A DNA stretch of 64,000 bases. Source: Dictyostelium discoideum (taxonomy: Eukaryota). The notes beneath the pieces are model-generated. The model ran no database searches. It was given only the letters and a program-made list of their open reading frames with translations, and was not told the origin of the DNA. Below are positions 2,433 to 54,411 of the stretch, one piece after another. The stretch lies in NCBI GenBank assembly GCA_000004695.1, contig CM000153.2:3040001-3104000 (forward strand), given 5' to 3'. Positions within the stretch are counted from its first letter, which is position 1. Each line of letters opens with the position of its first letter. A program made the translations under genes and the position numbers.

Positions 2433-2623
2433 TTTTAGTTTTTAAAATTAAAAAAAAATAAAAAAAATAAAAATGAAAATAAAAAGATAAAACACAATAA
2501 ATCAGGTGTTGTAATTTTTAAAATATTTAATTTTATTTACATTTTGTTTTTTTTTTTTTTTTTTATTTTATACACAATCCCAAAAAAAAAAGTTACTTTC
2601 AAATAAATGAAATTGTTTTTTTC

Positions 2624-2661
<38 letters not shown>

Positions 2662-2777
2662 GTAAAACCGAATTATTTTTGGTTATAGCCATTTTTTTTT
2701 TTTTTTACTTTCAAATATTTCTGATTGTGAATGTATTATATGTAAAAATAACAAAAAAAAAAAAAAAAAAAAAAAAG

Positions 2778-15335: not shown

Positions 15336-16667
15336 ATGGTATTAATTACAAGATATTTACCATCAGTAACAGATAATAATCAACCAGCATTAGAAGGTCA
15401 AAGTAAAGATCAAATTGTTGATACAGTTATTACAAGTACTACAGTTGGTATTATTAATCAATTAACAATGTTAGTTGCACATTCCAATAGTATTTTCACA
15501 GCTTTAGCTAATGATGCAAATTTGGTAACACAAAGAATTGAGAAATTAGGATCTAGAATTAGACCACTCATTCAATCAATACCATCGATTGAAGATTATC
15601 ATAGAAATACATCAATCGATACAATGAATAGTAAACCAAGAGCAGAGTTTCATGCTGATAACAGTGAAAGAAATCAACATTTTACTCATGCCTCAATACC
15701 GGCATCAATCAATACTGTCTATGAAAAATGTAAACCACCACCAAATCTTCAATTATTGGACCCATACATGGACGATGGTCAAAAATCATTAAAACTCTAC
15801 ACCAATCCAGACTTTTTCATGGATGAATGGGTTGCTGAACAACAAAAACTTCATGAAGAGGCCAGACAAAGAAAACGTGAGCGTAGAGAAGCACGTTTAA
15901 AGAAAAAAGGTGAAAAGAATGAAGTAGAGGTTAAAAAAGTTAAATCCGTTACAAAGGTACGTTATGATCCTGTAACTGGTGAGAAAATTACTATCAATAT
16001 TGAAAGTCCACACACTTCATCACCACAAATTCAACATCAATCCAACAACACCGCCACTCCACAACATACCACCCAACACTTTGGTACCAATCAATACCAA
16101 GCACCACCACCACCACCATTATCTCAATCTTCACCATCTCAACAACATTCACCAATCAATTCCTATACTCCACCTCCACCACCATTAAATACAAGCACCC
16201 CTTCACCATCCTCTTCATTCCAAGGTAGACCACCTTCAACTGGTTTCAATACTCCACCACCACCAATGTCAAATAATAATAATATGCCACCACCACCACC
16301 AATGCAACAAAATGGTGGAGCTGCAAACAATCGTTTATCAGTCCATAACTCGGCTCCAATTGTTGCTGCTCCAGCTCCACCACCACCACCACCACCACCT
16401 TCAGCACCTGCCCCACCACCACCTCCAATGGCTAAAGCTGGTGGAGGTGCCTCTGACATTAAACCAAAAGCATCCGGTGCTCGTTCAGATCTTCTCTCTT
16501 CAATTATGCAAGGTATGGCATTAAAACCAGCTGAAGAACGTAAGGTTGCTGAAGCTCCAAAGAAAGAAGAAGCATTGAATGTAGCTGATATTCTCGCTAG
16601 ACGTATTGCTTGGGCTGGTGATAGTGATTCCTCTGAAGATGAATCTGATGATTCTGATTGGGATTAA
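15336..16667 (+). CDS. scrA: SCAR/WAVE actin-nucleation promoting factor. It has the SCAR homology domain, a basic region, a poly-Pro region, a WH2 motif and an acidic tail with a terminal Trp. Single exon, 443 aa.
   Basis: N-terminus MVLITRYLPSVTDNNQPALEGQ...INQLTMLVAHSNSIFTALANDANLVTQRIEKLGSRI is the SHD. The PPPPPPPP tracts are followed by WH2 RSDLLSSIMQGMALKP and acidic ...DSDSSEDESDDSDWD*, i.e. a VCA region. Confidence 0.9.
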   Translation: MVLITRYLPSVTDNNQPALEGQSKDQIVDTVITSTTVGIINQLTMLVAHSNSIFTALANDANLVTQRIEKLGSRIRPLIQSIPSIEDYHRNTSIDTMNSKPRAEFHADNSERNQHFTHASIPASINTVYEKCKPPPNLQLLDPYMDDGQKSLKLYTNPDFFMDEWVAEQQKLHEEARQRKRERREARLKKKGEKNEVEVKKVKSVTKVRYDPVTGEKITINIESPHTSSPQIQHQSNNTATPQHTTQHFGTNQYQAPPPPPLSQSSPSQQHSPINSYTPPPPPLNTSTPSPSSSFQGRPPSTGFNTPPPPMSNNNNMPPPPPMQQNGGAANNRLSVHNSAPIVAAPAPPPPPPPPSAPAPPPPPMAKAGGGASDIKPKASGARSDLLSSIMQGMALKPAEERKVAEAPKKEEALNVADILARRIAWAGDSDSSEDESDDSDWD

Positions 16668-17090
16668 AAAATATATTTTTGGTACCAAAAACTATCACTC
16701 TTGCGAAATTTAAGTTATAAAAAGAAAAAAAAAATAATAAAAAAATTTAAGTTAATAAAAAAAAATATAATAAGAATAATGCATAATCATTTTAATTTAC
16801 GTGTCCTGTTTTGATGGATTTTTTTTTTTTTTTGAGTTAAAGGTATTACTTTATTTATTTATTCAATTTTTATAATTATTAAATTATTAATTATAAAATT
16901 TGTTTAAAAATAAATGTATAAAATAATAAATAATTTTAATAATGGAAAAGTATTTATAATAAATTGGGTGTTTGCAATAATTATTTGAACTTTTTAGTAT
17001 TGTATGTTGTCTGTTGTTGTTTGTTTGTTTGTTTTTTGAAACTCAAGGTTATAACATCCGAAGTTCGGATTTTTATGAAAAATCCAAAAG

Positions 17091-17162
17091 CTCCCTGTCC
17101 GGGAATTGAACCCGGGCCTTTCGCGTGACAGGCGAAAATCCTCACCACTAGACCAACAAGGA
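17091..17162 (-). tRNA. tRNA-Asp (anticodon GUC), 72 nt.
   Basis: The reverse complement is TCCTTGTTGGTCTAGTGGTGAGGATTTTCGCCTGTCACGCGAAAGGCCCGGGTTCAATTCCCGGACAGGGAG. It has a 7-bp acceptor stem, anticodon loop CUGUCAC, a B box GGTTCAATTCC, and is identical to the plus-strand copy at 33029..33100. Confidence 0.92.
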
Positions 17163-33028: not shown

Positions 33029-33100
33029 TCCTTGTTGGTCTAGTGGTGAGGATTTTCGCCTGTCACGCGAAAGGCCCGGGTTCAATTCCCGGACAGGGAG
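33029..33100 (+). tRNA. tRNA-Asp (anticodon GUC), 72 nt. Second copy, identical to the minus-strand gene at 17091..17162.
   Basis: TCCTTGTTGGTCTAGTGGTGAGGATTTTCGCCTGTCACGCGAAAGGCCCGGGTTCAATTCCCGGACAGGGAG. The 3' flank shares cttttg...CCGAACTTCG with the other copy. Confidence 0.92.
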
Positions 33101-33213
33101 CTTTTGCTATTTTTTCAAAAACCCGAACTTCGAAAATTTGTAGTTTTTAATTTTTAAAAAAATCTGGACTGAAAATTTTTTAAAAAGGAATACTTATTTA
33201 TAAATTTTAAAAT

Positions 33214-35848
33214 TGACCGAGATTAAGGATAGAAAAGGATGAATTACTTTTCACGTGTATCTTGTATCCTCTTGGTCGCGGTACGGTTTTTTTTTTATAT
33301 TCTATATATATTATCAGACACCTGTCAAAAAAGAAAGGAAAGGAATCATTGAGAGCTTCATAGAGAGTATCTACCCTTCACCATCCAAACCGCAGCTATA
33401 CGACTCCCAAGAGGAGATCGATATCATCTCATAATGGTAGTAATCAAAATCAACCAATGGAATGTCAGAGGTTGGGGCACTGACACCTCCTTCAAAAACA
33501 AAACAGACTTTATCAAATCCCAATCCCCCCCAAACTCATTGGCACTAACCATAGTCAATGAACTCAATGCTGACGCAACACAAGCACACCAGCTATTTCC
33601 TGGCTCCATCATTAGTGCAACCAACAGAGGCAACGGAATAGGAATACTAAACAACAACAACCAAAACATAAAACTCTCACCAATATTCATAATAGAAGGT
33701 AGACTAATAATATCAGACATTCTAATAAAAGATACCACAACGAGAATCTTGGCCATATACGCCCCGGCCCAACTTGATAAAAGAAAAATACTAGCTTCAA
33801 CACTTAACAAACACTTCAACAACCAATACCACAACCTAACGTCTAACCCTAAAAAAAACATCGACATCATAGCAGGTGACTTCAATTGTTTAGACTTCAA
33901 TGACAATCACACATCAAATGACGACCAAGGCAACTTGACAACACAATCCCCAGATGAGATGGCCACAGTAATTGAAGCCATCAGAATTTCAAATAACCTA
34001 ATGGATATGGACCAACTAAATAAAAGACCCACCTTCTCAAGAACGATACACAACACAAACAATAACCTCACAAGAATCTTGGAAAGGAGACTAGACAGAA
34101 TATACCTTAACAATAGCATAATCAACTACAGCCAATTATACTTAAGGAACCTAATCCCCCCAAAAATTAATGACATACCTCTATCAGATCACAACTTCCT
34201 ATCAACCACCTTCACTCTACCCAACATACAGATGAACAAGCGCAGATGGAGATTAAAAAAATCCTCAATCCTCTCAAGCATAATGCTTAAGAAAATAGAC
34301 TTCCTACTTAACGATTATTCAAGAGAGCTGTCATCCAACCATAACTCTATTTCCTTCTCTCAACTCAACAGCTTACTAAACAAAATAAAACAACTATACA
34401 CAGAATTTCTAAAACAAAATGACTACAACAATAAGGCAAACATCAAAAATCTAATCTTCCTACTAGAGACAGAATTTAAAGACCAAGCCTTCGCAACCCT
34501 TTCAGCAATAAATGAATCTAAAAAAAGAGAAGAACAACTTAAACAAGAATTGAACAACTATTGCGAAGAAACCTCACTCAAGTACATCTCCGCGAGAATC
34601 AAGAAAAGACACAATGATTTCACCATCAACGCAGTAAAAGATGCACAAGGTAGAACAATCAACAAACAGGAATTGATCGAAGAAGAATACGTAAAGTATT
34701 ACTCAAATCTTTATGACTACAAAGAAGATGACCCACCATCTCATTATGAAATGTTGGAAAATTGGACAGTGACCAGGGACTCAACATGGGACAACCTTGA
34801 AAATGAATTCACAACACAAGAGATCCTAGAAGTAATAAAACAATTGAACCCACACAAATCTCCAGGCCCAGGTGGAATTCCAAACTTATTCTACATAACA
34901 CACAAAGAAAAACTAGCTCCAATACTGGCCTCAGCATTCAACGACACTCTAAGAAATCCTCATCTAATTAGCAAAAATTACAAAGAAGGCCTCATTATCA
35001 CGATACCTAAAAAGGGAGACCCCGAACTAATCAAAAACAGAAGACCAATTACACTGGCTAACTGTATATATAAAATCCACTCAAAACTAATAAACAATAG
35101 AATAATCCCTATACTAACGAAAGTGATCAACCACAATCAAAAAGGTTTCGTACCAGGCAGATTCATTCTAGATAATATCATATCAATGAACGAATTAATC
35201 AACTACTGTAATGATAAAAGAATTAACGGAATAATTACACTATATGATTTCGAAAAAGCTTTTGACTCGATCTCACACGGTTCAATACTCAGATCACTAC
35301 AACACATATACATTCCAACCAATATAATCAACCTGATAATGAATCTACTCACCAAATCTGAAGCAAGAATTGAAATTAATGGTAGAACTACTATACCCTT
35401 TGAGATCAAAAGAGGAGTCAAACAAGGAGATCCACTATCACCCACCCTGTTCGTCCTTGTAATAGAGGCTTTAGCTAGAAAAATTTTACAAGATGACCGA
35501 ATTACTGGCCTTCCTCTAAACAACAGCAACCACAGAGAGAAATTCCAAAGCTTTGCAGACGACTCGGCTTCAATGGTCCCAGACTCTCAATAACTTGAAT
35601 TAGTACTACAACACTTCAATTCATTTTGCAAAGCCACTTCCTCAAAACTAAACATCGACAAATCTTCATCAATTCTTATAGGCAACCCAGACAATACCAA
35701 CCAAAGAATTCCAATATCTACAAATCCAGAAAGATACTTGGGATACTTCTTCACAGGCAAAGGGATAACAAGAAAAATGCCAGAAATATTAAACACAATA
35801 AGATCATCCTTAGTACTATGGAAAACCACTGACTCAACAATCAAAACC
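33214..35848 (+). mobile_element. Non-LTR (LINE-like) retrotransposon copy A, TRE3-type (tRNA-gene-targeted, 3' side). It begins about 114 bp downstream of tRNA-Asp. It has a ~220-bp 5' leader, an ORF with an APE-type endonuclease and reverse transcriptase (33434..35593), no ORF1, an in-frame TAA at 35591-93, and is interrupted by the assembly gap.
   Basis: ORF MVVIKINQWNVRGWG... (APE N-motif) ... RT motifs ...GIITLYDFEKAFDSISH...FADDSASM... The position relative to the tRNA gene matches the known TRE3 integration preference in Dictyostelium (established knowledge). Antisense and alternate-frame small ORFs in the track are by-products. Confidence 0.75.
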
Positions 35849-35948
35849 NNNNNNNNNNNNNNNNNNNNNNNNNNNNNNNNNNNNNNNNNNNNNNNNNNNN
35901 NNNNNNNNNNNNNNNNNNNNNNNNNNNNNNNNNNNNNNNNNNNNNNNN
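35849..35948. other. Assembly gap (100 N).
   Basis: Run of n characters. Confidence 1.
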
Positions 35949-37305
35949 ACTTTATAACCACTATAAGACCAAAAAATATGTATACAGATTTTGATTGGTA
36001 TAAATCACTCACAGAAATAGAATGGGTAATAGAAAATGAAGGATGTAAACTAATTAAATCAGAAATTAAAGGCGAAACTCTAATTATCAAAACAGTGAAA
36101 AGAGTCGTAGAAGAATTTGACACTATCATTGAACTAGACAATCTAACATTAATTGGACACTCCAACAAAGGATGGAGAGATCAAACCTCATTACCAGAAA
36201 ATCAAGAAGAAAACAAAAATAAAAAACAATCAGATGAACAACAACCACAATCTACATCAGAACAAATACCAAAACAAGGAAAAAGAACAATCATTATCCC
36301 ACCAATCACATCCTCATCTAATGATAAAACATTTATGGCCCTAGATGATACAGCTCAAAAGGTAATAGAAGCATCACTAGAAAACGTAGATGAACTAACA
36401 AGAATAGAGAATGAGATCAATACACAATCGATAAACAATCAAGAAATTAAAACAAAATCAGAAAAACCTATCGAACCACCATCTCCATACAATACACCAA
36501 TAAAACAACACGGCGAAACAAAGGGACTAACAACGGAAGAAAAACTTAGAGAGGCAAATGATATCTTCGACTTCACCAGCCCAAACACTGATGCAATAAG
36601 AAAAATAGAATTCCCACTTTCAATCCCTTCAAATCAATGGTTCTTCTCCTCTCCAATAAAACATATCATGAGTTTCAGCCCAACCTATGGTACACCATCG
36701 AAAATTATCGATTCACCAAGTAAATTGTTAAACACACCAAAAAAGAAACAACAAGACAAAACAAACAAGACCAACAAAACACCAGTCAAACCAAAATTGG
36801 GTGAATATGGACAAAAAAGCATAAAAACAAAAATGGATGAAGATATAGACAACTTCAACAAGGAAATTCTAAAACAAATCAATAAATCAAAAAACCCCAC
36901 AAACACACAAGACCAACAACACAATGAACAAAGTAAAGATCAGTTAGAAGACAAAATAAACCAGAAACTTCAAAAGGTAGATAAAAATCTACCCCAAATA
37001 AAACTATAAAGAAAAACACAATAAGAATAGGTGTTTGGAACGTCCAAGGATCCAACACCATCCAATCTGCCAGCATAATAAACACCGTTTTAGACAACAA
37101 CAAGCTGGACGCAGCACTTCTAACTGAAACAAATATAAAAACAAATAAAATTTACTCAATAAATCAACAATATAAAAACAAAATAACACACCACGCACCA
37201 ATTGATAAAACAGGACAAGGGGTGTCACAAATCATCATCAACACCCGCAATAGAACTTCCTAAACATCTCAAAAAATACAATAATTCACTCAGTACTTTC
37301 TATAA

Positions 37306-37345
<40 letters not shown>
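35949..37345 (+). mobile_element. Fragment of a second, different non-LTR retroelement. It has an ORF1-like protein (to 37009), then the N-terminus of a distinct APE endonuclease (IRIGVWNVQGSNTIQSAS...LLTETNIK..., 37021..37260), truncated and ending in an A(40) tail.
   Basis: After the gap the ORF (FITTIRPKNMYTDFDWYKSLTEIEWVIENEG...) no longer matches copies B/C of the first family. A new APE start motif follows the stop at 37009 and differs from the MVVIKINQWNVRGWG of copy A. Oligo(A) at 37305..37345. Confidence 0.55.
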
Positions 37346-37349
<4 letters not shown>

Positions 37350-37680
37350 CAGGTTAATCAGAAAAATAAAAAAGATAGAAAGAAAATAAAATGAAAATCA
37401 CAAACAACACCACAAATATTAAGCAACACAAATGCCTACAAAAAATAAGCGAAATTGTGGATAAAACTCAATTAAAAAAAAAACAATTCAAATACGTCAT
37501 AAACATCAATCACGAACCAGACGATAAAATAAAAAAAGATTTAGAAAAAAGTTTGGACAAAAAAGATGTTTTAATCAAAAAGACCCTGTAAAAAAAAAAA
37601 AAAAATAAAATGAGATCTAGCATCTCAAGGAGAAGCAAATAATAATTGCGTTATCCAATTCAAAAAAAAAAAAAAGTGGG
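37346..37680 (+). mobile_element. Additional retroelement 3'-end remnants: two further oligo(A) tracts (37598..37612, 37666..37679), each preceded by non-AT-rich tail sequence, and a 66-aa ORF at 37391..37591.
   Basis: Three oligo(A) tails within about 400 bp downstream of a tRNA gene, which fits nested or serial TRE3 insertions. The sequence is unlike the surrounding intergenic AT-rich DNA. Confidence 0.35.
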
Positions 37681-37951
37681 TATTTTATGAAAATTTTGTT
37701 GTATGGCTCTATTGATAATGACAAAGATGTTTTTTACAATTTTAAATTTGAAATTCCATAAAATATATAAACATCCATTTAAATAAATAATTAATCTTGT
37801 TTTTTATTTTTATAAAAAATTTTCAAATTTAATTGAAATTTTTTTCTTTTAAAATTACAAAAAAAAAATCCCACTTTTTTTTCACAAATAAAAAAAGTTT
37901 TTTTTTTTATTTTATTTATTATTTTTTTAATAAATTATTTTTTAAAAAATA

Positions 37952-38076
37952 ATGGTGAAAAGAATAAAAAATAAACAAATACAAAATACATATGGTCAGA
38001 ATGATCAGCATGAACTCAAGCTACAAAAATCCAAAATTCAAATACCAAAAGAAAAAGGAGAACATCAAGGCGAGCC

Positions 38077-38143
<67 letters not shown>

Positions 38144-40801
38144 AAACAACAAAAACAACAAAAACAAGAATATAATGAAAATGAAAAATTATTTTGGAAA
38201 GTAATTAAAAATAAATTTTTAAAAACATACATATTTTCATTTTTAAATGATAAATCAAAGATTCAAAATAAAATTTACAAGTATGATGAAATTTGTTCCG
38301 TTCAATTTTTAATAAAGAATAATTTAATTGAACTATTAAAATATAAAGTTAAAAGAGGTGAAACTTTGATTGATTTTCTACCATTTTTAAAAAAAAGAAA
38401 ATTTCAAAATTATAAACCACCCACTGAAGATCCAAATGATAGAAAATCAATTTTTAAAGTTATAAAAAATGATACAGAATTTTATCAAAACCTTTTCAAA
38501 AATTATAATCAAAATTTCATATCAAATGAAAAAACATTTTTTGCCAATGGTTATACTCCTTCCATTTTACCATTATCAATGGAGGACGATGGTAAATTCG
38601 ATTTAAAAATTGAAACAAAAAAACAAATAATAAAAGATGATAATGAATGTGCATTTAGAATTTTTCAAAATGTAAACTCTGTTCAAATAACTGTCGAAGA
38701 TTTTTGTGATGCAATATCAGAAGGTTCAATTAAAACAGCTAAATTAATTTTTAATCGATTAAAAAAGGAATCAAATTTTAAAAAACATGAATTAATTGGA
38801 AAAGTTTGGAAAAATTATACATTTTTAAATTCAAATTCACCAATGTTTAAAGATTTTACTTTTAAAATTTCACCATCAACTTTTGAAACCTCTGAAACAT
38901 TTTCAACTTTATCTTTATCATCACAATCACAATCACCATTACCATCATCTCAAATATCAACCACATCAAAATTTAAAATTATAAATAAATCAGTTAAATT
39001 ATTATTGATTGACTTAAAATTTATACCACCAAAAGAAATGAATAATATTAATCAAGATATTTTTAAAATTGATATTAAAGAATTAAAAGTTAAACATCTT
39101 TTAGAATCATGTAAAACAATTTCAATGATATTACAATTTACAAATTTATTTGATACTTATTTAAAAACTTTAAAAAAGAAAGAAATCAGTGATAAATTTA
39201 TGGGATTTGAAGGTGAACTTCAAACATATTTACCAAATCCATTAATTGATTTTTTAAGTTTTGAAAAATTAATTGAAATTGAACAAAATTTAAAACCTAA
39301 ATCAATTGAATCATTGGTTCATTCAATATCAACAAGTGATACTGATAGCGATTACATTTTTAAACTATTTAAAATGTTATTAACATTTACAGATTATTCA
39401 ACAGTTTTTAAAGATAATTTTATATTTTTCAAATGTAAATATTTTAATGATTATTCATTATGTAAATCAGCAAAAGATAAACAATTACCATTCCAATTAG
39501 GTTCATTTGAAAATATTTTACCAAATTCTTCTTATTTAAGTAACTTGTTTCAATTATTTTCATATTGTCAAAATGAAAAAGAAATTCAAACTAAATTCAT
39601 TAATCAAGCAATTGAAAATATAATTCAAAGTTTAAAAGATTCAAAAAGACCAATAATTAAACCATTAAATTTAATTATAACATTATTACACTTTGATTAC
39701 ATTGAATTTATTTCAATATTTTATAAAAATCTAAAAGATATTATTAAAAACGAGAAAGATTTACTACCAATTGATTTACTTGACCATATAAAATCAACAA
39801 CTACTTTTGATTTTTTTATTAATAGTAATTTATTATTTAAAAATCAAATTAATTTAAATAATTGTTTAATTTTGAAAAATAATGGTGGTGGTGGTGAACC
39901 ATTAAATTTAATGTATCATATTAAAAGTAATTATAATAATATTTATAAAGAATTAATTAGTTCAATTGATACAACTATTAATGATCCAATAAATTATTCA
40001 ATTGAATCATTATTATTTATTTATAATAATATAAAAGATTTTGAATATTGTTATGAAAGAATTAATGTATGGAAAAGAAGTAATATTGATTTATCATTAA
40101 ATCAATTCATTCAATTAGTTAATTGTACACCAATAAATAAGCAATATAACTATATCTGTGGTAATGGTTCATTTGATAAATTCAATTACGATTCATGTTT
40201 ATTAAAGTATAATTGGGTTATAAGAAATAAAAAACATGATATTCAATCAAATAGATGTGATAGTAATTATGGTTCAACAGAGATTGGAATAGATGCAAAA
40301 CTTGTTATTATACCATTATACCAATACTATAATCATAATAAATTAAAGTTAAATGATATATTCCCAAAATTGAATACATTAGATCCAATAATTTTCAATA
40401 AACCTCAAAATCATTTAATTCATAAAATTATAAGTGCAATTGGTGAAAGAGGTGATATAAAATCATTAGAGACTTTATTAAAATTAATGGATTTCTCAAA
40501 TTTTAATAGAACTTCTTTTTTTTATTTTTATAGTTTTTTTTTATTTGTCATTTTAGCTGGTGCTTTAAAAAATGGTCATTTAAAACTATTCCAATACTTA
40601 AAATCAAATTATCCTCACTTTTTTAATGAAAAATTAAATTTTGGTAATAATATAAATAATTTAGAAAGTTATGGTGTATTTCAAATAAATACTTTATTTG
40701 AAATATTAAGAGATATCTCAATAATTTATAATTTAGTTGATATTTTTAATGAAATAAAAAATAATATATTTTTTGAGCATTTTAATTATAAAAATAAATA
40801 A
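37952..40801 (+). CDS. Large orphan protein (949 aa), single exon, with an N-terminal poly-Gln tract. No recognisable domain.
   Basis: Long uninterrupted ORF with moderate-complexity composition (many F/N/K/I). (CAA)n at about 38090..38165. Confidence 0.5.
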
Positions 40802-40856
40802 AATAAATAATTAAAAATAAATAAATTTTAAATAAATAAATAAATAAATATATATC

Positions 40857-40888
<32 letters not shown>

Positions 40889-40970
40889 CAAATAAATTGA
40901 AAAAAATAATAACAAAAATAAATTAAAAATATTCTTTTTATTTTTTTATATTTTTTATTATTTTTAATGT

Positions 40971-41817
40971 TTATTTAGCTTTACCTTGATTGGCAACAGC
41001 TTGGATAGCAGCATTTAATTCTGATTCATCAGCAAGGTAGTAGTGTTTAATTGGTTTAAGGTTTTCATCCAATTCATATACTAATGGGATACCAGTTGGA
41101 ATATCCATTGATACAATCTTATCATCAGCAATGTTATCTAAATATTTAACTAAAGCTCTAATTGAATTACCATGAGCAGCAATTAAAACTTTTTGACCTG
41201 ATCTATATAATATAAATAAATGTTCATTTAAAATTAGTATATATATATTAAAATTATTATTATTATTAATTAATATTATTATTATTAAAGAATACATACT
41301 TAATTGTTGGAGCAATAGTATCATTCCAAAGTGGTAAAAATCTTTCAACAGTATCTTTAAGACATTCAGTTTTTGGGAGATCAGATTTATCTAATTTAGC
41401 ATAACGTGGATCATTACCTGGATAACGTTCATCAGATTCTTCGAGGGCTGGTGGTGGGATATCATAAGATCTTCTCCAGATTAATACTTGATCTTCACCA
41501 TATTTTGCGGCAGTTTCTGATTTATTTAAACCTTGAAGTGAACCATACATACGTTCATTTAATCTCCATTGTCTTGAAACTGGAATCCAATAAAGGTTCA
41601 ATTCTTCTAAGAGGATCCAAAGGGTACGAATTGCTCTCTTTAAAACACTTGTGTAGGCAATATCAAATGTAAAACCTGCTTTTAATAATCTTTTACCTGC
41701 TTCATGAGCTTCTTGAACACCTTTCTCTGAAAGATCAACATCTGTCCAACCTGTGAATTTATTCTCTTTATTCCATGTTGATTCACCATGTCTAATTAAA
41801 ACTAATTTATAAACCAT
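40971..41817 (-). CDS. gpmA: 2,3-bisphosphoglycerate-dependent phosphoglycerate mutase (dPGM). Two exons: 41817..41300 and 41202..40971.
   Basis: [33 protein letters not shown] (the RHGE catalytic-His motif) ...APTIK / [23 protein letters not shown]... The GTATGT donor (phase 2, AA+A=Lys) and tatag acceptor restore the canonical ...IK-SG...AAHGNS sequence. Intron 41203..41299. Confidence 0.9.
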
Positions 41818-42072
41818 TTTCTTATTTTAAAAGTAATTTAAAAAAAAAAAAAAAAATGAAAAAAAAAAAAAAAAAAAAATTTATGTGCACATCCAAAAAA
41901 AAAAAAAAATAAAATAAAAAAAATAAAAAAAATAAAAAAAAATAAAATAAAAAACAAAAATAAATTAAAAATTCGGACGCAAGAACTGTTTTGGCCGGGT
42001 GATTTGACAGTCAATTTTTTAATTTTTTTTTTTATTTTTTTTAATTTTTTTTTATTTTTTATTTAAAATTAC

Positions 42073-42931
42073 TTAAAAAGGAATTGATTTACTTTCACTA
42101 ATTAATTCACAAGTATCAGATAATATTGGATCATTTAAAGTTTTTGGAATTGATTCCACTTTAAGTGATTGAGAGAAAGTTCCAATTTCTTTTGGTTTGA
42201 AAATGATTGGGACTTTGGTTGTAGTCTTTGGATTTAATGTTATGGTATGATGATTCAATATGAATGGTGATGGTGATGGTAAACTTAATCTAACATTTAA
42301 AGTTGCATTTGAGGCATTTGATATTGATACTTTGTTTGTTGAAGATTGTCCAATTTGAACAATACCAAATGTTATTTTATTATCATAAAAGAATAAAATT
42401 CCATTTGTATGTTGTTTGGGTTGTTGTTGTTGTGGTGGTTGTTGTTGTTGTTGTTGTTGCTTTCTTTGTTGTTGTGGTGGTGGTTGTTGGTCAGGTTCAA
42501 ATTGATGAATATGGTAATGTCTAACTTCTTCACTCTTTTTTATACCATCTGTAGTTGTAGTAACAGTTGGGTTAAATCTTAATGTATTTTCAAATGTATT
42601 GAATAAATTATTTTCATTATTATTATTATTATTATTTGTATTGTTATAAACTGAAGGTTGAGGTTTTTTTAAAATTGATTTTAAGTTTGTATTATTCGAA
42701 GCTGATGTTGTAGGAGGAATGTTGGTGGTTGCTGCATTAAATGAAGTGGTGTTTGCATTTAAAACCGAATTTGTTGGAAATGGTAAATTGATTGTCGCTT
42801 TAAATGGTGTATTGTTTAAATCCATTTCTGAAAGTTCAAATTCTCTTCCATTAATTGGTGTTGCTGTTGTTGTTGTTGTTGTTGTTGATGTAGTTGTTTT
42901 TTTAGTAGATGGTGGTAAATTACTAAAAATA

Positions 42932-43017
<86 letters not shown>

Positions 43018-46000
43018 ATTATTATTTTGTTTTGTTGGTGGATTACCAATTATTGGAGTTATTTTAATACTTGATAAATTATTAAAGAATAATTCAACAT
43101 CATCATAATCATCTAAATCGAAATTATGATTTTGACTATTTGAATCATTAATTTGTTGAGAATTTTCATTGATAAAAGTTTCTTTAAATTGAATATCTTG
43201 AATTTCTTCTTCTTTAAATTTGAAATCAAATAAGAATTCATCATCAAATGAAACCTCTTTACTTGTTGAATCCATTGAATCAGTTTTAAGATTTTCCAAT
43301 CTATTATGAACTGATCTAATCTTTCTTTGACGTGAAATTTCATCACCAAAATATAATTTAACTTTACCTGGTGATATTGTTGAATTCATTAATGATCCAT
43401 TTAATTGTGATAATAAATTATTGATACTACCGCCACCACTGCTGCTATTTGGATGAATTTCTAAACGGAAATCAACTTGTTCACCAACACCAATTGAAAC
43501 ACGATCTGGTTTAATAGTTGATTTTGAATTTGGATAAAATGAAATAGCTCTAACAAAACCTGAACGTTGACCTGTATTTTTAACTGTAAATTTACAATAA
43601 ACAGATTTACCATCAGTACTTTGCTTATTAACATATAATACAATATTATTATTATTATTGTTGTTTGAACCACTTGTATTATCAATTGAATCTAAATTAC
43701 GAGCAGAAGAAGCAACTTCCATTTTAGCGGAACCACCATAACCAAGAACCGGTATTGAGAATGATAGTTGTTTATTCAATGATGAGAAAACAACTACACT
43801 ACCATGTGGTGATATTGAAAGTGGTGTATAAATTATCTCTACTTCAGTCTTTGAATGTGGACTAATTAATAATTGTTCACCATTACCAATACTAAAGAAT
43901 GAATGACTATTATTACTACTACTACTACCACTATGATCATTTTGTTTAAATGTTGCATTCAAATGTAATGCATGTGGTAATGTACTAGTTAATGTTATAA
44001 GTACACTCTTTGTATCACCTAATTTAACACCACCAAAATTAACCACTTTTCTATTACAATAAAGTGATGGTGGTAAATTATTATTATTATCATCATCATC
44101 GTCATCGTTATGAAAAATAACACTTGAATTATTGATATTATTTAAATTATCTTGATCGTCAGAGATGATTTTAGTTGATGGTAAAAGTTTATTACTATCC
44201 TGATAGTAATTATCTTTACGTATATTATTAAATCTCTTTGACTGATAAGTTGGAGAAGGTGGTGATGATGGCATATATAAAGTTGAATCTAATGGTACGG
44301 TTATACCAATAACATCGATTTTAATCTTTTCCTTTGTTATTGATGGTGTTGAAATTATAATTGCTGCACGTTGTAATTGAATATTATTATTTGGTTGATA
44401 CTTAATTTGTAATGGTATCATTGAATTTGGTTCAACTGAAAATATTGATGGACTAATTGAAAATACATCTGGTTGTGTTGAAATGCATTCAATATCAATT
44501 AATTCATTATTATTATTATTAATTTTATTATAACTATTAAAATTACAATACATTGATAAAGTTTCAATTGGATAGATTTTCTTTCTTTCTTCATATACTA
44601 ATTTAATACCATTCTCTAAAACATAATTTGAAATACTTAATGGTACTCTACTATTATTATCAATATTTTCATAATCTTCATTATCATTATCATCACTACT
44701 ACTACCAATACTACTACTATCATCATTTAGTTTTTCCTTTTTCAATATGAATTTTGGTGTAAATGATTTTGATTTTTCAATTTTTTCAAGTTTTTGTTGT
44801 TGTGATAATAATGTTGATGGTGATTGTGTTGGTGATGGATCAATTATTAATGGTTTTTGTGAGGTTGGTGTTTTAGAATTATTATTGTTATTATCAATAT
44901 TATTATTATTATGATGATTATTAGTAATAGTTGCCGATAATTTAATTAATTTCTTTTGACCAGTTAATTGATCAATAATGGTTGCATTCGCATTATAAAT
45001 TTGTTTTTCTGGTAAATTGAATTTAAGAGAGATTTGATCATTTGATAATTTTTCAAATGAAAATCCTTCACCATTTATTTCATATGTTAATTTTTGACCA
45101 TCTATAAGTTAAAAAAAAATAAATTAAAAAAAGAATTATTAGTATGTAAACATATATATAAATTTTTAATAATAATAAAAATAAAAATATACATACTTTG
45201 AGATTTTAAAGAAAGATTTGAAGTTAAAGTATCATTAGAATTACATTCACCCATATCCCAATTATTATAACTATAAAATAAATCTTCATGATTTAAAATA
45301 TCAGCAGTTGGTGTTGCATTGATTGGGATGGATAGATTGTAAACACCACTTTGTGGTATATATTGAATTCTAAATTCATCTTCAGTCTCACTATCATTTA
45401 AATTCAATGGAACTGTTCCACTACAGGTCAATACTAAATTTGCATAATGTATACCATTTGATTCTGGTTTTGGTAAATTATCAACATTTGGTATATATTC
45501 AACCTTTAAGAATATATGTGATAATGGTTGAATTATAATTATTGGTGGAAATGGTGCCAATTCACCTTGTTTGAGACCATTATTCGATGGTGTATTATTG
45601 TTATTATTGGTTTTATCAGAAACTATTATTCTAAAAGCATCTTTATCTAATCCAAAAATATTAATATTTGATAATGTTACAGGTTTTGAATGTGGATTTG
45701 TTACAATTATATCTCTACTTAAAATCCACTCTAATTCACATTTTCCTAAATCTATTCTCTTTTCAATTACTACCATTGGATATTTAATTATGCCATCGTC
45801 ATAATTTTCTTCATTAATGTCTTCAATGTGTTGTTGTTGTTGTTGCTGTTGTTGGGGTGTTCTTGGACGTTGTTGTTGTTGGTGTTGTGGTGTTTTTGGT
45901 CTATTTGGTTGTTCTTGTTCTTGTTCTTGTTGTTGCATTTTTTGTTGATATTGAGAATTATTTATTAATGAAGATATTAAGAATGAATTATTTTTAATTT

Positions 46001-48037
46001 TTGGTGATTTAGGTTGAATTTGTGATGGTTGAGGTTGTTGTTTTGATTGTTGAGGTTGTTGATGTTGGTGTTGTAGTTGTGGTTGTAGTTGTGGTTGTGA
46101 TGGTTGTTGTTGTTGTTGTTTTGGATTTAAATATCTTTCTTTTAATCTTTGATAAGTATCATAATCTAAATTACCTCTTGTAGGTGTATAACCAACATGA
46201 GAAGGATCATTTGGAACACCAATTGAAGCAAATGTTGTATCATTTTGACCAGTTCTATTACTAACATCACCACTAATATTTGTTAGAATTGGTGATACAT
46301 AATTATTCATTCTACCACTAACACCACCATTCATACTTTGATTATGGCCACTATTGTGATTTGGTGTTGTACCATTTGGAGTATTTTGATAACCACCACC
46401 ACCACCACCACCATTCATACTTTGATTTCCACTATTTCCAAATGTTTGATTTATGCTATTGTTATTATTAATAATATTATTATTATTATCAGCAGTAGGG
46501 TCATTCATACTTTGATTTCTACTAAAATTTAATTCATTATTATCATTATTGTTTTCATTTTTATTTCTTTCATAATGATCATCATCATTTATAGTTTCGC
46601 CAAACTCAATACCAGACCCAGTACCTGATAATCTACCCATATGTGGTGATTTATATTGAAAATAGGTACCAGGTGTTTTAGCTTCACCATTATCTTGAAT
46701 GAAAGCTTGATTACTATTATTTAAAGATTGATGATTCATTTGATCATCTTTATAATTATCATTACCATTATTATTATTATTATTATCATTATGATTATTG
46801 TCGTTATCATTATTATCCAGATATTGGTCATCTTCATAAACTTCGACATGTGGTTCTTGGTATTGATGTTGATAACTATAATTATTATAACTATTATTAT
46901 AATTTTGACTTTTATTATTAATACTATTTTGATAACCATCATTATTAATATTATTATTATTATTATTATGGTCATCATCATCATCATCATCGTCACCTTG
47001 GTAATTTGTTGCTGGTGAATACATTAAAGATGTATCAATGACACTTTGTCCATTAATGTCAGTGAATTGATTACTACCATTTTGTCTAGTATTTCCAATA
47101 TTATCAATATTTGGATTATTATTATGATTATTTATAAAATCTTTATTAAATCTATTATTTTGTGAACCATAGAAATCAACATCATTAATATCTATGTCTA
47201 AATTAATTCATAATAAAATAAAATTCAAACCAATATTAGTATCATGTTAATATAATAATATATAATATATATAATATTTATTACTATTATCATATGAGAA
47301 TAAAACTTACTTGGATTTGAAACATTAAATGAGAATGTTGTATCACGTAAAATATTATCGTCACCATTAAAATTATCGAATGGTAAACTATTTTGAAAAT
47401 TTTGATTTGGTTGGTTTTGTGTTTGTTGTTGTAATTGTGGTTGTTGTGAATTTTGATGTGATGGTGATTGTTGATATCTTGATAAATGTTTATTAATGAA
47501 ACTATCTTGTGATAATCTTTGATTATGTAGATTCTTTATACTACTGATGAAAGAATTTTGTTTATGTAATGCTGAATTACGAAATGAATCACCAAAATTA
47601 TTATTACCATTATTACCATTATTATTGTTGTGGTGGTTGTTGTTGATACCATTGTTATCAGGTACTCTTGAATCAAATAATACAGATTGATTTCTATGAT
47701 TTCTTGAATCATTATCAGTGATATTACCAACATAACTATAATTCTCTACTCTATTACCACCACTACTACCACCACCACCACCACCACTACTACTACCAAC
47801 TCTTGTATCATCTAAAAATCCATTACCAACATTATTTAAATTGACTTTATCACTAACATTTGAAAATCTACTTAGGAATTGGTCATTATTACTTCTATTG
47901 GATCCTAATCCAAATTCATCCAAATTACCAAATTCTGTACTAAGATGATGATTGAAATTATTTAATAAATTATCATCATCTCTAAATGATAATGAAATTG
48001 GGTTAAATCCTGAAAATGGGTTCACGTGTTGATCCAT
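42073..48037 (-). CDS. Very large protein (about 1900 aa) with low-complexity Asn/Gln/Ser regions and at least four Ig-like beta-sandwich segments of PapD/MSP/ASH type. Possibly a Cep192/SPD-2- or Hydin-like ASH-domain protein. At least 3 exons: 48037..~47316, ~47205..~45189, ~45092..42073.
   Basis: Exon junctions NVSNPSK|gtaagt ... tttag|DIDINDVDFYG... and ...SLKSQ(S)|gtatgt ... ttatag|DGQKLTYEINGEGFSFEKLSNDQISLKFNLPEKQ..., which joins to MKKEKLNDDSSS.... Repeated segments such as ...ILSRDIIVTNPHSKPVTLSNINIFGLDKDAFRIIV..., ...NRKVVNFGGVKLGDTKSVLITLTSTLPHALHLNATFK..., ...VYCKFTVKNTGQRSGFVRAISFYPNS..., ...ITFGIVQIGQSSTNKVSISNASNATLNVRLSLPSP... have the F-G-x-V-x-x-G ... N-x-(S/G) ... pattern of ASH/MSP folds. 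Confidence 0.5.
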
Positions 48038-48243
48038 TCCAAATAAATGCTTAACCTGTTGTTGTTATTATTTTTTTTTTTTTTTTTAAATTCAAAATTT
48101 CAAAAAAAAATTATTTAATAAATAAAATTAAAAGGTTTAAAATAAAAAAACTTATAAAAGTTTATGAATATGTTATGTTATTGAAGTGAATGAAAAAAAA
48201 ATAAAAAAAAAAAGATAAAAAAAATAAAAAAAAAATTCAATTT

Positions 48244-48278
<35 letters not shown>

Positions 48279-48453
48279 CGGGAAATTAATCAAAAGGGTT
48301 TACTTGTTTTTTTTTTTTTTTTTTTTCGATGTCGAACAGAATTCTAATAGATTTGTGTATTTTTGGAGCAATTGCATGTTTTATTGTGTGTGTTTCTCGA
48401 GAATTAAAGGTTTGTATTTTTCAATTTTTTAAAAATTTTTCATGAATTTAATT

Positions 48454-48456
<3 letters not shown>

Positions 48457-48494
<38 letters not shown>

Positions 48495-50636
48495 TGGATT
48501 AACTAGATTGATATATGTCCATCTGTGTTAATACGAGTTTTTATTTAATATTTATTTATAGGCTTATCATTTAAGCTGAAGGGTTATTTTAATCATATGA
48601 ATTGATCGAAAGATATAATATTTGGGAGAGATGATTCTGGAATACAATAGTAATTAGCTGTTGTTTTTCTTAGCTTGATCGTTGAGGTGAGAAGGATCTT
48701 AGGATCTTTGAAATTATTATGGTCTTTTGCTGATAAGTTTTTCAGATCTTTTGCTTTTTTGATGTATTCTAGAGTGGCCAATTTGTGCCATTTCTTTAGA
48801 AGGGAGCTGTATGATAGTGATTCATTTGTTAAAGGATCTTCACTGTATATTTGATTGCAAATCCAAATCCAAATGTTGTGGAGGATAAGGGCCATTAGGT
48901 TTCTATATGCGAATGATCTGGTTAGATCATAGTCTATTGCTTTATAGTTCCATTCAAAGTATTCTTTGTGGAATCTGTGGTTGGCGTAATCTGCATTCAC
49001 TTCTTGATCTTTTTTGGCTGTCGGTGATAATTTTGGAGTTATTCTATTAATGAAATTGTTATTTTGCCTAATTCTTGTATGGTGCCAGTTTTTACCTTTG
49101 CCTGTGGTAATATAGATGAAATTTTTGAGTTTATTTATTTTTATGAATTGTTTTGTTTTCTTGCATGAGAAGAACAGGTGACCGTATGGGTCTTTGCTCA
49201 TATCTTCTTTGCAGAGTGGGCATTGTTTGTTGTGAAGGTAGTTTATTGGAAGGCATCTGGCCTGGAATCTAAACATTGTGTCTCTTGTTTTAGGGTCTTT
49301 TATCTTCAGTATGTTGTTGAAGAGTTGATTATAGCTGTAGCCTCTTAAGTTTAGAGATGATTGGAATTCCGTTTTAGGGATGGTTGGATTTTGGTCTTGA
49401 ATTGTGGTATACCATTCTACCAGTGAAAGTGGTTGTCCATTTTCGTTTTTTATGGATGTGAGATTATTGTTGAAGATTGCTTTTGTGATTCTTATTTTGT
49501 TCCATTCGTCTAAGTTTTCTTTTAGGTATCTGGATGTGAATTTGTTTTTTTGGATCTGATATTCCCAGCTTTTGTGATGCGATGAGTTTGTTTGTTTGGT
49601 TTCTAGTGCTAGGATGAACTGGTTTATGATCCAAAGTTTCTGCGCCAGTTGTCTCAATTCTATATTCCAAATGTTCCAACCCCCTACTTTTAGTGGATAT
49701 CTTGCTCTTTTGGTTCTCATTAAATTAATAACTTGAAATCCACTAGCATTTTTGTTGTTTGGTGCCGATAAAAACCATTCTACTAATTTATTTATTTGGT
49801 TTAATTCCTCTTCCTTAAAGTTCTCTACATATGAATAGTAGGTTAATTTAGAGAGTGCGAATGCTTTGAGGATGTTGGTTTTGGTTTTGATTGTTGAGTC
49901 AGTGGTTTTCCATAGTACTAAGGATGATCTTATTGTGTTTAATATTTCTGGCATTTTTCTTGTTATCCCTTTGCCTGTGAAGAAGTATCCCAAGTATCTT
50001 TCTGGATTTGTAGATATTGGAATTCTTTGGTTGGTATTGTCTGGGTTGCCTATAAGAATTGATGAAGATTTGTCGATGTTTAGTTTTGAGGAAGTGGCTT
50101 TGCAAAATGAATTGAAGTGTTGTAGTACTAATTCAAGTTATTGAGAGTCTGGGACCATTGAAGCCGAGTCGTCTGCAAAGCTTTGGAATTTCTCTCTGTG
50201 GTTGCTGTTGTTTAGAGGAAGGCCAGTAATTCGGTCATCTTGTAAAATTTTTCTAGCTAAAGCCTCTATTACAAGGATGAACAGGGTGGGTGATAGTGGA
50301 TCTCCTTGTTTAACTCCTCTTTTGATCTCAAAGGGTATAGTAGTTCTACCATTAATTTCAATTCTTGCTTCAGATTTGGTGAGTAGATTCATTATCAGGT
50401 TGATTATATTGGTTGGAATGTATATGTGTTGTAGTGATCTGAGTATTGAACCGTGTGAGATCGAGTCAAAAGCTTTTTCGAAATCATATAGTGTAATTAT
50501 TCCGTTAATTCTTTTATCATTACAGTAGTTGATTAATTCGTTCATTGATATGATATTATCTAGAATGAATCTGCCTGGTACGAAACCTTTTTGATTGTGG
50601 TTGATCACTTTCGTTAGTATAGGGATTATTCTATTG
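48457..50636 (-). mobile_element. Retrotransposon copy B of the same family as copy A, minus orientation. The 3' end (about 110-bp tail plus oligo(A), seen as T-run 48457..48490 on the plus strand) is intact. It runs through the RT and a C-terminal Cys-His region into the 100-N gap. It shares the in-frame TAA with copy A.
   Basis: ORFs 50138..50608 (...HNQKGFVPGRFILDNIISMNELINYCNDKR...ADDSASMVPDSQ*) and 48593..49993 (...GYFFTGKGITRK...CPLCKEDMSKDPYGHLFFSC...NIISFDQFI*). The tail gattaaaataacccttcagcttaaatgataagcc... is shared with copy C. Confidence 0.75.
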
Positions 50637-50736
50637 NNNNNNNNNNNNNNNNNNNNNNNNNNNNNNNNNNNNNNNNNNNNNNNNNNNNNNNNNNNNNNNN
50701 NNNNNNNNNNNNNNNNNNNNNNNNNNNNNNNNNNNN
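50637..50736. other. Assembly gap (100 N) between inverted retroelement copies B and C.
   Basis: Run of n characters. Confidence 1.
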
Positions 50737-53107
50737 TGGCCCAGTAATTGAAGCCATCAGAATTTCAAATAACCTAATGGATATGGACCAACTAAATAAA
50801 AGACCCACCTTCTCAAGAACGATACACAACACAAACAATAACCTCACAAGAATCTTGGAAAGGAGACTAGACAGAATATACCTTAACAATAGCATAATCA
50901 ACTACAGCCAATTATACTTAAGGAACCTAATCCCCCCAAAAATTAACAACATACCTCTATCAGATCACAACTTCCTATCAACCACCTTCACTCTACCCAA
51001 CATACAGATGAACATGCGCAGATGGAGATTAAAAAAATGAACGAATTAATCAACTATTGTAATGATAAAAGAATAAACGGAATAATTACGCTATATGATT
51101 TCGAAAAAGCTTTTGACTCGATCTCACACGGTTCAATACTCAGATCACTACAACACATCAACATTCCAACCAATATAATCAACCTGATAATGAATCTACT
51201 CACCAAATCTGAAGCAAGAATTGAAATTAATGGTAGAACTACTATACCCTTTGAGATCAAAAGAGGAGTTAAACAAGGAGATCCACTATCACCCACCCTG
51301 TTCGTCCTTGTAATAGAGGCTTTAGCTAGAAAAATTTTACAAGATGACCGAATTACTGGCCTTCCTCTAAACAACAGCAACCACAGAGAGAAATTCCAAA
51401 GCTTTGCAGACGACTCGGCTTCAATGGTCCCAGACTCTCAACAACTTGAATTAGTACTACAACACTTCAATTCATTTTGCAAAGCCACTTCCTCAAAACT
51501 AAACATCGACAAATCTTCATCAATTCTTATAGGCAACCCAGACATAACCAACCAAAGAATTCCAATATCTACAAATCTAGAAAGATACTTGGGATACTTC
51601 TTCACAGGCAAAGGGATAACAAGAAAAATGCCAGAAATATTAAACACAATAAGATCATCCTTAGTACTATGGAAAACCACTGACTCAACAATCAAAACCA
51701 AAACCAACATCCTCAAAGCATTCGCACTCTCTAAGTTAACCTACTATTCATATGTAGAGAACTTTAAGGAAGAGGAATTAAACCAAATCAATAAATTAGT
51801 CGAATGGTTTTTATCGGCACCAAACAACAAAAATGCTAGTGGATTTCAAGTTATTAATTTAATGAGAACCAAAAGAGCAAGATACCCACTAAAAGTAGGG
51901 GGCTGGAACATTTGGAATATAGAATTGAGACAACTGGCGCAGAAACTTTGGATCATAAACCAGTTCATCCTAGCACTAGAAACCAAACAAACAAACTCAT
52001 CTCATCACAAAAGCTGGGAATATCAGATCCAAAAAAACAAATTCACATCCAGATACCTAAAAGAAAACTTAGACGAATGGAACAAAATAAGAATAAAAAA
52101 AGCAATCTTCAACAATAATCTCACATCCATAAAAAACGAAAATGGACAACCACATTCACTGGCAGAATGGTATACCACAATTCAAGACCAAAATCCAACC
52201 ATCCCTAAAACGGAATTCCAATCATCTCTAAACTTAAGAGGCTACAGCTATAATCAACTCTTCAACAACATACTGAAGATAAAAGACCCTAAAACAAGAG
52301 ACACAATGTTTAGATTCCATGCCAGATGCCTTCCAATAAACTACCTTCACAACAAACAATGCCCACTCTGCAAAGAAGATATGAGCAAAGACCCATACGG
52401 TCACCTGTTCTTCTCATGCAAGAAAACAAAACAATTCATAAAAATAAATAAACTCAAAAATTTCATCTATATTACCACAGGCAAAGGTAAAAACTGGCAC
52501 CATACAAGAATTAGGCAAAATAACAATTTCATTAATAGAATAACTCCAAAATTATCACCGACAGCCAAAAAAGATCAAGAAGTGAATGCAGATTACGCCA
52601 ACCACAGATTCCACAAAGAATACTTTGAATGGAACTATAAAGCAATAGACTATGATCTAACCAGATCATTCGCATATAGAAACCTAATGGCCCTTATCCT
52701 CCACAATATTTGGATTTGGATTTGCAATCAAATATACAGTGAAGATCCTTTAACAGATGAATCACTATCATACAGCTCCCTTCTAAAGAAATGGCACAAA
52801 TTGGCCACTCTAGAATACATCAAAAAAGCAAAAGATCTGAAAAACTTATCAGCAAAAGACCATAATAACTTCAAAGACCCTAAGATCCTTCTCACTTCAA
52901 CGATCAAGCTAAGAAAAACAACAGCTAATTACTATTGTATTCCAGAATCATCTCTCCCAAATATTATATCTTTTGTTCAATTCATATGATTAAAATAACC
53001 CTTCAGCTTAAATGATAAGCCTTTAAATAAATATTAAATAAAACTCGTATTAACACAGATGGACATATATCAATCTTGTTAATCCAATATTAAAAAAAAA
53101 AAAAAAA
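50737..53107 (+). mobile_element. Retrotransposon copy C, plus orientation. It has an APE fragment (to ~51020), then an internal deletion of about 930 bp removing the N-terminal part of the RT, then the RT core, the C-terminal Cys-His domain, a ~110-bp 3' tail and oligo(A) at 53088..53107. The ORF 51022..52989 reads through (CAA) where copies A and B have TAA.
   Basis: ...MNMRRWRLKK is directly fused to MNELINYCNDKR... (compare copy A, about 34257 to 35189). The long ORF ends ...NIISFVQFI*. The 3' tail is identical to the reverse complement of copy B's tail. Confidence 0.75.
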
Positions 53108-54355
53108 ATAGTAAAAAAAAATCTTACTGGTTAGCACTTAAGCCTCCGTGACTTTGGTTAGAATCTTGGTCTGCCCGCGAATTAATGTGGTCAAAAAATA
53201 AACACACTGGATATTACTCGGATAGAATTTCGGAATTTATCTATCAATAAAAACCTTTAACAATAAAATTAATTCAAAGTTGATCATCAAACTATTTATA
53301 GAATAGAATATATCCAATTGTTTAATAAAGGAGACATATATTATGAAATATCAATTGAATTATTATTATATTACAAAAGACTAGTTAATTTAATTAAAGA
53401 CAAAGAAGTTATTAAACACAAGAAATTCTTGAACTCAACTAATAATATTATTCTATTTGAAGGAGAAACATATATTAATCCACAAGAAGATTTAACTTTT
53501 TATTTAAATAATAAGTTAATTACTGCTCTCTTAATAGTTGGAATTGGAAATATTTTCGATTATTGGTAATGCAACTGATGGTTGGTATGTTATTGGATCT
53601 TCTTCATTTTTACTATACTCCCCTGAAACTTTTGGTACTGGAAGCATTGTGGTTGTTGGTACTGGAAGCATTGAGGATTATGGCATTAAATCATTATCTT
53701 CTCTATTATTACTATTATCCTCTGACATTATTATTATTATTATGATTTGGTGACTACCAAATCGTATTGTATTATTTATAGATAAAACTATTAAAATTTA
53801 TAAATCGGCGACCCTTTGACCTATATTTTTTATTGTTGTATATGTATCTTGCTCTTTTTGAATTAGAAGAATTGGCAAAAAAACAATAAAATTATTAAAT
53901 TTAATTATTAAACCCCTTTTACATTTAAACCAAATAATAAAATTTAATAAATTTATTAAAACCCTTTTTTACACTTTAAATTAAATAAATTGATATTTAT
54001 GAGATTAAATAAAATTTATGATAAATAATAAAATATTTTTGATAAACAGTATGTTACTAAATAAATAAATATACTTATGAATTTAAACTATTTAGAGAAT
54101 TTGTTGTGTTTAAAAACTAAGGGTGGTTGGGTGTAAAAATTTCCGCAATTAGGTTGAGAAAAGTAATTTTATGTTGCGCTGGGTTGTCCCTCTCTTTTTT
54201 TTTTTTTTTTCTTTAATTATTTTATTTTCTACAAGACTCCCCTTATTAAAAACATTTTATAATAAAAAAAAATATTTACTATATACCAAAAAAAAAATAT
54301 TCCAGTATTCTATTTTTATAACTATATTTTACTTGGATCGCGAAACAAAAAAAAA

Positions 54356-54410
54356 AATAAAATAAAATAAAATAAAATAAAATAAAATAAAATAAAATAA
54401 AAAATAAGAT
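54356..54410. repeat. (AAAAT)n pentanucleotide microsatellite, about 10 units.
   Basis: aaaataaaataaaat... read directly, immediately 3' of the nubp1 stop. Confidence 0.9.
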
Positions 54411-54411
54411 T

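Follow-up and report, generated by a model that had tools for sequence, protein, structure and literature searches.

A rearranged TRE3-A and a canonical TRE5-A.2 brought together by an apparently flipped contig in Dictyostelium discoideum

The window analysed here, a stretch of 64,000 nucleotides (nt) of Dictyostelium discoideum DNA with an extremely high A+T content, is very probably part of chromosome 4 of the AX4 reference. As proposed in an initial annotation made from its letters, it contains two different families of tRNA-targeted non-long-terminal-repeat (non-LTR) retroelements, one TRE3 and one TRE5. Two tRNA-Asp(GTC) genes were detected with ARAGORN, at 33029..33101 on the plus strand (61 bits with Rfam tRNA) and at 17090..17162 on the minus strand, the former being the target gene of a TRE3-A element referred to below as copy A. 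Scaffold gaps of 100 N lie at 35849..35948 and 50637..50736. Copy A runs up to the first gap and a TRE5-A.2 follows behind it, where the join appears to be wrong; the two elements look adjacent because the contig between the gaps (35949..50636) seems to be flipped. The features described by the initial annotation all exist, namely an endonuclease and reverse-transcriptase (APE-RT) open reading frame (ORF) from 33434, the gap, a 352-codon ORF1-like frame, 83 N-terminal codons of a different endonuclease, an A40 run and two A-ended segments.

Comparison loci L001 and L002, both with full-length TRE3-A, were taken from the gapless long-read assembly GCA_054883475.1, which comes from another laboratory strain, probably AX2-214. 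Two further loci of that assembly, L003 and L004, were reached via neighbouring genes; they overlap and are co-oriented on one chromosome. The TRE5-A reference set consisted of ten full-length TRE5-A.1 copies (L005-L014). Every piece of the locus has multi-copy counterparts in D. discoideum with 98-99% identity, which rules out chance, and the proteins closest to ORF2 of copy A and to the ORF1-like frame are from D. discoideum as well. The homologous proteins and cluster members are named only “hypothetical protein” and carry no TRE subfamily labels.

Sequence that does not belong to the flank begins at 33213, 111 bp after tRNA-Asp(GTC), and the element is co-oriented with this gene. TRE3 elements share the orientation of their tRNA gene and are located 40-150 bp downstream of it (PMC5911963), and both copy A and the L001 copy, 67 bp after tRNA-Thr, lie within this range. 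The full-length copies in L001 and L002 have a 5' untranslated region (5'UTR) of ~170 nt beginning with A9-CCGTACCGCG, followed by ORF1 and by an ORF2 that is read in the -1 frame; in L002, the 416-aa ORF1 stops exactly at the equivalent of window position 33434. Between its target-site duplications (TSDs) of 16 bp, the L001 copy is 5,228 bp long, and one L002 copy has ~5,230 bp. Published lengths are 5,229 bp (TRE3-A), 5,279 bp (TRE3-B) and 4,734 bp (TRE3-C) (PMC5006619); the L001 length fits TRE3-A and not TRE3-B or TRE3-C.

Copy A departs from these full-length copies at its 5' end. Its first part (33213..33296, minus strand) is nt 1-83 of the TRE3-A 5'UTR in inverted position, with the 5' A-run seen as T10; it shares 93-97% identity with the stretch immediately 5' of ORF1 in L001 (5830..5933) and L002 (4048..4141), and it matches the full-length copies on the strand opposite to the ORF2 body. 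This part and its T10 were also considered as a small RNA polymerase III gene, a candidate that was rejected in view of the TRE3-A identity and of Rfam, which finds only tRNA here. The inversion junction is occupied by an AT-rich filler of 19 nt, ATATTCTATATATATTATC (33297..33315), for which no match with up to three mismatches was found on either strand of full-length TRE3-A. The sense body (33316..35848, plus strand) covers element nt 1304-3836 up to the contig end and shows 98-99% identity with L001 7133..9665 as well as with two L002 locations. Since collinearity with the full-length copies begins only at 33316 (element nt 1304), 33316..33434 can be recognized as the last 118 nt of ORF1, all that copy A retains of this gene. 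The initial annotation was thus wrong about the complete lack of ORF1, and its 220-bp leader dissolves into ~83 nt of inverted 5'UTR, the filler and the end of ORF1.

ORF2 of copy A starts at 33434 in the -1 frame, with a TAATG overlap with the ORF1 tail at 33432..33436, and is interrupted in the reverse-transcriptase region by an in-frame TAA at 35591..35593. It is 98-99% identical to the D. discoideum homologues P0001 and P0002. Pfam matches RVT_1 (1.5e-27) and Exo_endo_phos, the latter over its full length but weakly (0.0029). The true 3' part of copy A was found at 48461..50636 on the minus strand by sequence match, where it comprises element nt 3083-5228 and an A29 tail and includes the CX2CX10HX4C motif; its end at 49883..50636 duplicates 35095..35848. 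Copy A would accordingly continue into the reverse complement of 49882..48461. The TSD could be read directly on both sides: AAATTTTAAAA at 33202..33212 (plus strand), of low complexity and weak when taken alone, is found again beside the poly(A) at 48453..48460 (minus strand), as TTTTAAAA with the A's of the tail before it.

Taken together, copy A (33213..35848 and its continuation) reads as a 5'-rearranged, dead TRE3-A, and neither as an ORF1-less type nor as a new subtype. It shares with TRE3-A the endonuclease, reverse-transcriptase and zinc-finger features of ORF2, the position 111 bp downstream of a co-oriented tRNA gene, the poly(A) tail and the TSD. It differs in the inversion of the first 83 nt, the loss of nt 84/90-1303 (nearly all of ORF1) and the premature TAA.

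The sequence behind the gap (35949..37675) has the structure of one canonical, non-autonomous TRE5-A.2, AB-ORF1-(ORF2 deleted)-BC, whose 5' AB part is missing from the window. Its segments follow one another as ORF1, ORF2 remnant, A40, 3' B-module, A-run, C-module remnant and poly(A), all on the plus strand. ORF1 (35949..37009), identified by protein and DNA matches, is present from codon 93 to codon 444, the first 92 codons being lost in the gap; it matches L003 from 8009 onwards. This 352-codon frame shows 98% identity to a 444-aa D. discoideum protein family, and the 352-aa partial product is 100% identical over all residues to AX4 DDB_G0285307, labelled ‘partial’; exact look-ups of this product and of P0029 in the contig index gave no hit. 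The ORF2 remnant (37012..37263, 83 codons and stop in the -1 frame) was delimited by alignment to TRE5-A.1 and consists of 78 N-terminal endonuclease codons that pass, with the frame preserved, into the final 5 codons (RNRTS) and the stop. Relative to the ten TRE5-A.1 copies, 3,133 bp of ORF2 are deleted in frame, with the junction near 37245/37246: 35951..37246 aligns with L007 5277..6572 (ORF1 and ORF2 start), and 37246..37580 with L007 9706..10085 (ORF2 end, A-run and 3' B-module). The identical junction is present in a second TRE5-A.2 at another locus (L005 3944). Neither the TRE5-A ORF1 nor the 83-aa endonuclease N-terminus has a Pfam match, and the same holds for a 66-aa ORF in the stretch initially regarded as a second tail.

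The A40 run (37308..37347) lies between the end of ORF2 and the 3' B-module, and an A-run is found at the same position in L001 and L005-L014; both this run and A15 are internal to one element and do not represent tails. The 3' B-module (37348..37580) duplicates the 5' B-module together with the ORF1 start: 37360..37580 agrees at 100% with L003 7702..7922, a segment that stands directly 5' of ORF1 and reaches into it, and the 66-aa ORF (37391..37591) is the duplicated ORF1 start within the B-module. The element closes with a C-module remnant of 81 nt (37581..37661) and a poly(A) (37662..37675), as seen in alignment with TRE5-A.1-type 3' ends. At the BC junction 69-72 bp are missing compared with L006-L012, and the retained C-module end keeps a predicted stem-loop (z = -2.4). 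A 15-bp TSD, GTGGGTATTTTATGA, follows at 37676..37690 (plus strand), and the same 15-mer occurs at L003 6081..6095, directly before the first of the A-modules that lie upstream of the 5' B-module in this locus; the 5' copy of the TSD, like the 5' AB part, falls in sequence missing from the window. Matching TSDs, which the initial annotation had suggested looking for, were thus found for both elements, 8-11 bp of A/T in copy A and 15 bp in TRE5-A.2 with the help of L003.

A TRE5-A.2 element is described as AB-ORF1-BC, lacking a large part of ORF2 and also 72 bp at the BC junction, so that the C-module retains its 3'-terminal 87 bp (PMC3159450), and is mobilised in trans by the ORF2 protein of TRE5-A.1 (PMC3159450, PMC5391098). 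The present copy resembles this deletion derivative of TRE5-A (formerly DRE) in its 444-aa-type ORF1, the -1 frame of ORF2, the ORF2 and BC deletions and the 15-bp TSD. It differs by an additional 29-bp deletion in the 3' B-module and in nothing else that is essential; in the long-read assembly it has 7.5 tandem A-modules, and the window does not contain its 5' end. The internally deleted, non-autonomous derivative suspected in the initial annotation is therefore present, in the form of an element already described rather than an unusual composite. The two dispersed copies with the same ORF2 junction are consistent with mobilisation in trans.

Alignment of the window to the gapless assembly indicates how the two elements came to lie side by side. 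The segment 20340..35848 corresponds to L004 21635..6142 on the minus strand (99.80%) and 50737..55725 to L003 4990..1, also on the minus strand (99.96%), whereas the intervening 35951..50636 corresponds to L003 8009..22668 on the plus strand (99.82%). Thus, the 14.7-kb contig between the two gaps seems to have been placed backwards with respect to both flanks. Its end at 50636 and the end of the preceding contig at 35848 have 754 bp in common (35095..35848 and 49883..50636), which fall on one and the same TRE3-A copy (L004 6142..6895). Both ends and the L004 copy carry five variants, the premature TAA among them, that have no counterpart in four other copies. The only two mismatches between the overlapping ends are at 35419 and 35453, where the 50636 side agrees with the long-read assembly and the 35848-side contig has the base of other TRE3-A copies. 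This suggests that the consensus at the 35848 end is contaminated by reads of other repeat copies.

In the gapless assembly, tRNA-Asp is followed after 111 bp by copy A (~4.0 kb), by ~12 kb of genes and then by the TRE5-A.2 in opposite orientation; next come 50 bp that include the 15-bp TSD, a tRNA-Thr(UGU) gene, 46 bp and a second TRE3-A. The TRE5-A.2 thus lies about 14 kb from copy A and 50 bp upstream of tRNA-Thr(UGU), its 5' end directed towards the tRNA's 5' end, in agreement with the ~48 bp characteristic of this element. The head-to-head position contradicts the earlier assignment of the post-gap element to the downstream side of tRNA-Asp, and the adjacency across the gap is not present in this assembly. 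In the window as scaffolded, the element does not have its upstream-of-tRNA placement, which points to a misjoin. The initial annotation had named an assembly artefact of the gap, with all segments collinear in one element, as the outcome that would undo its reading; the artefact holds in substance, in the form of the flipped contig, but the pieces do not belong to one collinear element.

About 3 kb are missing from the window here, comprising a 5' part of the second TRE3-A, tRNA-Thr, the 7.5 A-modules, the 5' B-module and the 92 ORF1 codons. The tRNA-Thr(UGU) gene, which falls in this unassembled sequence, has a 14-nt intron and was detected at L003 5959..6045 by ARAGORN with introns allowed; without the intron option the hidden tRNA had been called as “Asp”, a call that was replaced once introns were permitted. 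The second TRE3-A (50737..53109, plus strand) corresponds to L003 2600..5912, 46 bp downstream of tRNA-Thr(UGU), and is multiply deleted. Its lesions are three in number: it is truncated 5' at about nt 155, and it has an ORF1 deletion of ~870 bp and an ORF2 deletion of 922 bp (equivalent to window 34263..35184). Each tRNA gene therefore bears an ordinary, published TRE arrangement, and there is no nest.

We assign a probability of about 0.85 to the joint reading that copy A is one dead TRE3-A, that the sequence behind the gap is a canonical TRE5-A.2 and that a scaffold error has made them adjacent. A genuine nest, in which the region downstream of tRNA-Asp was struck three or four times by TREs or harbours a novel composite element, would account for the TRE3 body, the TRE5 ORF1 and the three A-runs that lie co-oriented within 4.5 kb of the tRNA as scaffolded, and TRE tandems at single tRNA genes are known (PMC5391098). 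Yet in about ten other TRE5-A copies the three segments ending in A-runs follow one another without interruption within a single element, so that the two supposed extra tails are its B and C modules in their usual order and not the marks of repeated hits. The TRE5-A.2 copy sits at tRNA-Thr in the gapless assembly, and the 3' half of copy A is found, private variants included, at 48461..50636, all of which makes a nest highly improbable.

Some points weigh against the joint reading as such. The name TRE3-A was given from length, abundance and position, and the comparison assembly comes from a strain other than AX4, which leaves formal room for an AX4-specific inversion. In that case the scaffold would be correct and the 14.7-kb segment truly inverted in AX4 relative to AX2, with breakpoints in the TRE clusters, which are plausible substrates for recombination. 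However, both breakpoints would have to fall exactly on N gaps, and an inversion would not duplicate the 754 bp with their shared private variants. Furthermore, the two TRE3-A copies are direct repeats in the long-read order, where homologous recombination would be expected to delete rather than to invert, and the scaffolded order demands four TRE3-A copies instead of two. A true inversion is consequently considered unlikely, and a flipped contig remains the preferred explanation of the adjacency.

The inverted 5' end of copy A is present in the window and in the long-read assembly alike. The element identities, the deletions, the TSDs, the distances and the flipped contig are seen directly in the sequences, whereas twin priming, whose expected anatomy copy A has, is deduced from the end product; we consider this origin somewhat better supported than its alternative. 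Copy A would be the result of one insertion, made through target-primed reverse transcription at a site 111 bp downstream of tRNA-Asp(GTC), with the layout TSD, inverted 5'UTR from nt 83 to nt 1, 19-nt filler, sense sequence from nt 1304 to nt 5228, poly(A) and TSD. A first cDNA primed at the poly(A) may have halted at nt 1304, the free 3' end of the top strand (...TTAAAA) may have annealed to UUUUAA at nt 84-89 of the RNA, and its extension up to the 5' end of the RNA would have caused the loss of most of ORF1. In accordance with this model, TTAAAA at 33207..33212, the last 6 nt of the TSD, is complementary to element nt 84-89 (TTTTAA).

We infer twin priming because one apparent TSD encloses both parts of copy A, the inverted and the direct segment lying between AAATTTTAAAA and TTTTAAAA; because the inverted part extends exactly to RNA nt 1; because its start coincides with 6 nt of microhomology to the TSD 3' end, the expected top-strand primer after second-strand cleavage; and because a TRE3-A inserted independently in inverted position would point in the opposite direction. 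Against this origin, the duplication comprises 8-11 bp of A/T, and the 19-nt filler and the 1.2-kb loss exceed typical twin-priming junctions. These same features, the filler, the large loss and the low-complexity TSD, could be taken in favour of a separate event, either an earlier inverted TRE3-A most of which was deleted later or a rearrangement that followed the insertion. In the case of an independent inverted TRE3-A, however, the body and not the 5' terminus would be turned to the tRNA, at odds with the co-orientation of TRE3 with its tRNA (PMC5911963). The exact reach to element nt 1, the start at the microhomology and the one duplication around the whole structure also speak against a separate event, which we therefore regard as a possible but doubtful source of the inverted piece.

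Twin-primed, 5'-inverted LINE-1 insertions in mammals have reportedly been described by Ostertag and Kazazian in 2001. Copy A resembles these in the inverted 5' segment and direct 3' segment surrounded by an apparent single TSD, as well as in the microhomology of the TSD 3' end with an internal priming site on the RNA. It differs in host and element family, in the larger internal loss of ~1.2 kb, in the 19-nt filler and in being a single instance. A twin-priming product in a tRNA gene-targeted retrotransposon of an amoebozoan is, with slightly favourable odds, what copy A represents. If so, second-strand priming on RNA, known from mammalian L1, operates in the integration of Dictyostelium TREs too, and the 5' A-run belongs to the TRE3-A transcript. 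A literature search on twin priming in Dictyostelium found no paper describing such a case.

Overall, the locus holds known elements in known configurations together with an assembly error; the only mildly new aspect is the anatomy of copy A expected from twin priming, as one candidate event. Accordingly, little changes for the biology of these elements, as the elements, their target preferences and the trans-mobilised derivative are all established. With respect to the assembly, 14.7 kb of what is apparently AX4 chromosome 4 seem to be misoriented and ~3 kb are missing, including tRNA-Thr(UGU) and the TRE5-A promoter array, which bears on gene order, on censuses of tRNA genes and transposons and on where integration sites are mapped in this region. 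A “composite element” that spans an N gap within a repeat should first be compared with a gapless assembly.

The TRE5-A copies in the long-read assembly carry tandem repeats of the 199-bp A-module, the plus-strand promoter, in 1, 2, 3, 7, 7.5, 10 and 19 units. The 7.5 units of the TRE5-A.2 at this locus occupy L003 6095..7635, and other arrays lie upstream of the TRE5-A ORF1 in L005-L014. No description of such A-module tandem arrays was found in the literature searched. The older assembly probably broke at this point because of the 7.5-unit array.

Several further observations concern TREs elsewhere in the comparison material and the remaining tRNA gene of the window. A 5'-truncated TRE5-A remnant lies upstream of tRNA-Thr(AGU) at L001 4950..5648, with the TSD AATTACGGAC and ~32 T's at its truncated 5' end, which are possibly untemplated nucleotides. 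At L005 1701..10260, a single tRNA-Val(UAC) has both a TRE5-A.2 and a full-length TRE5-A.1 upstream of it, arranged as one of the TRE-TRE tandems known from publications. A TRE insertion was also considered at the other tRNA-Asp gene of the window (17090..17162) and discarded, there being no TRE3-A or TRE5-A matches at that site. The G+C-rich sequence downstream of this gene (15336..16667) belongs to an ordinary gene for a proline-rich, SCAR/WAVE-like protein and not to a TRE.

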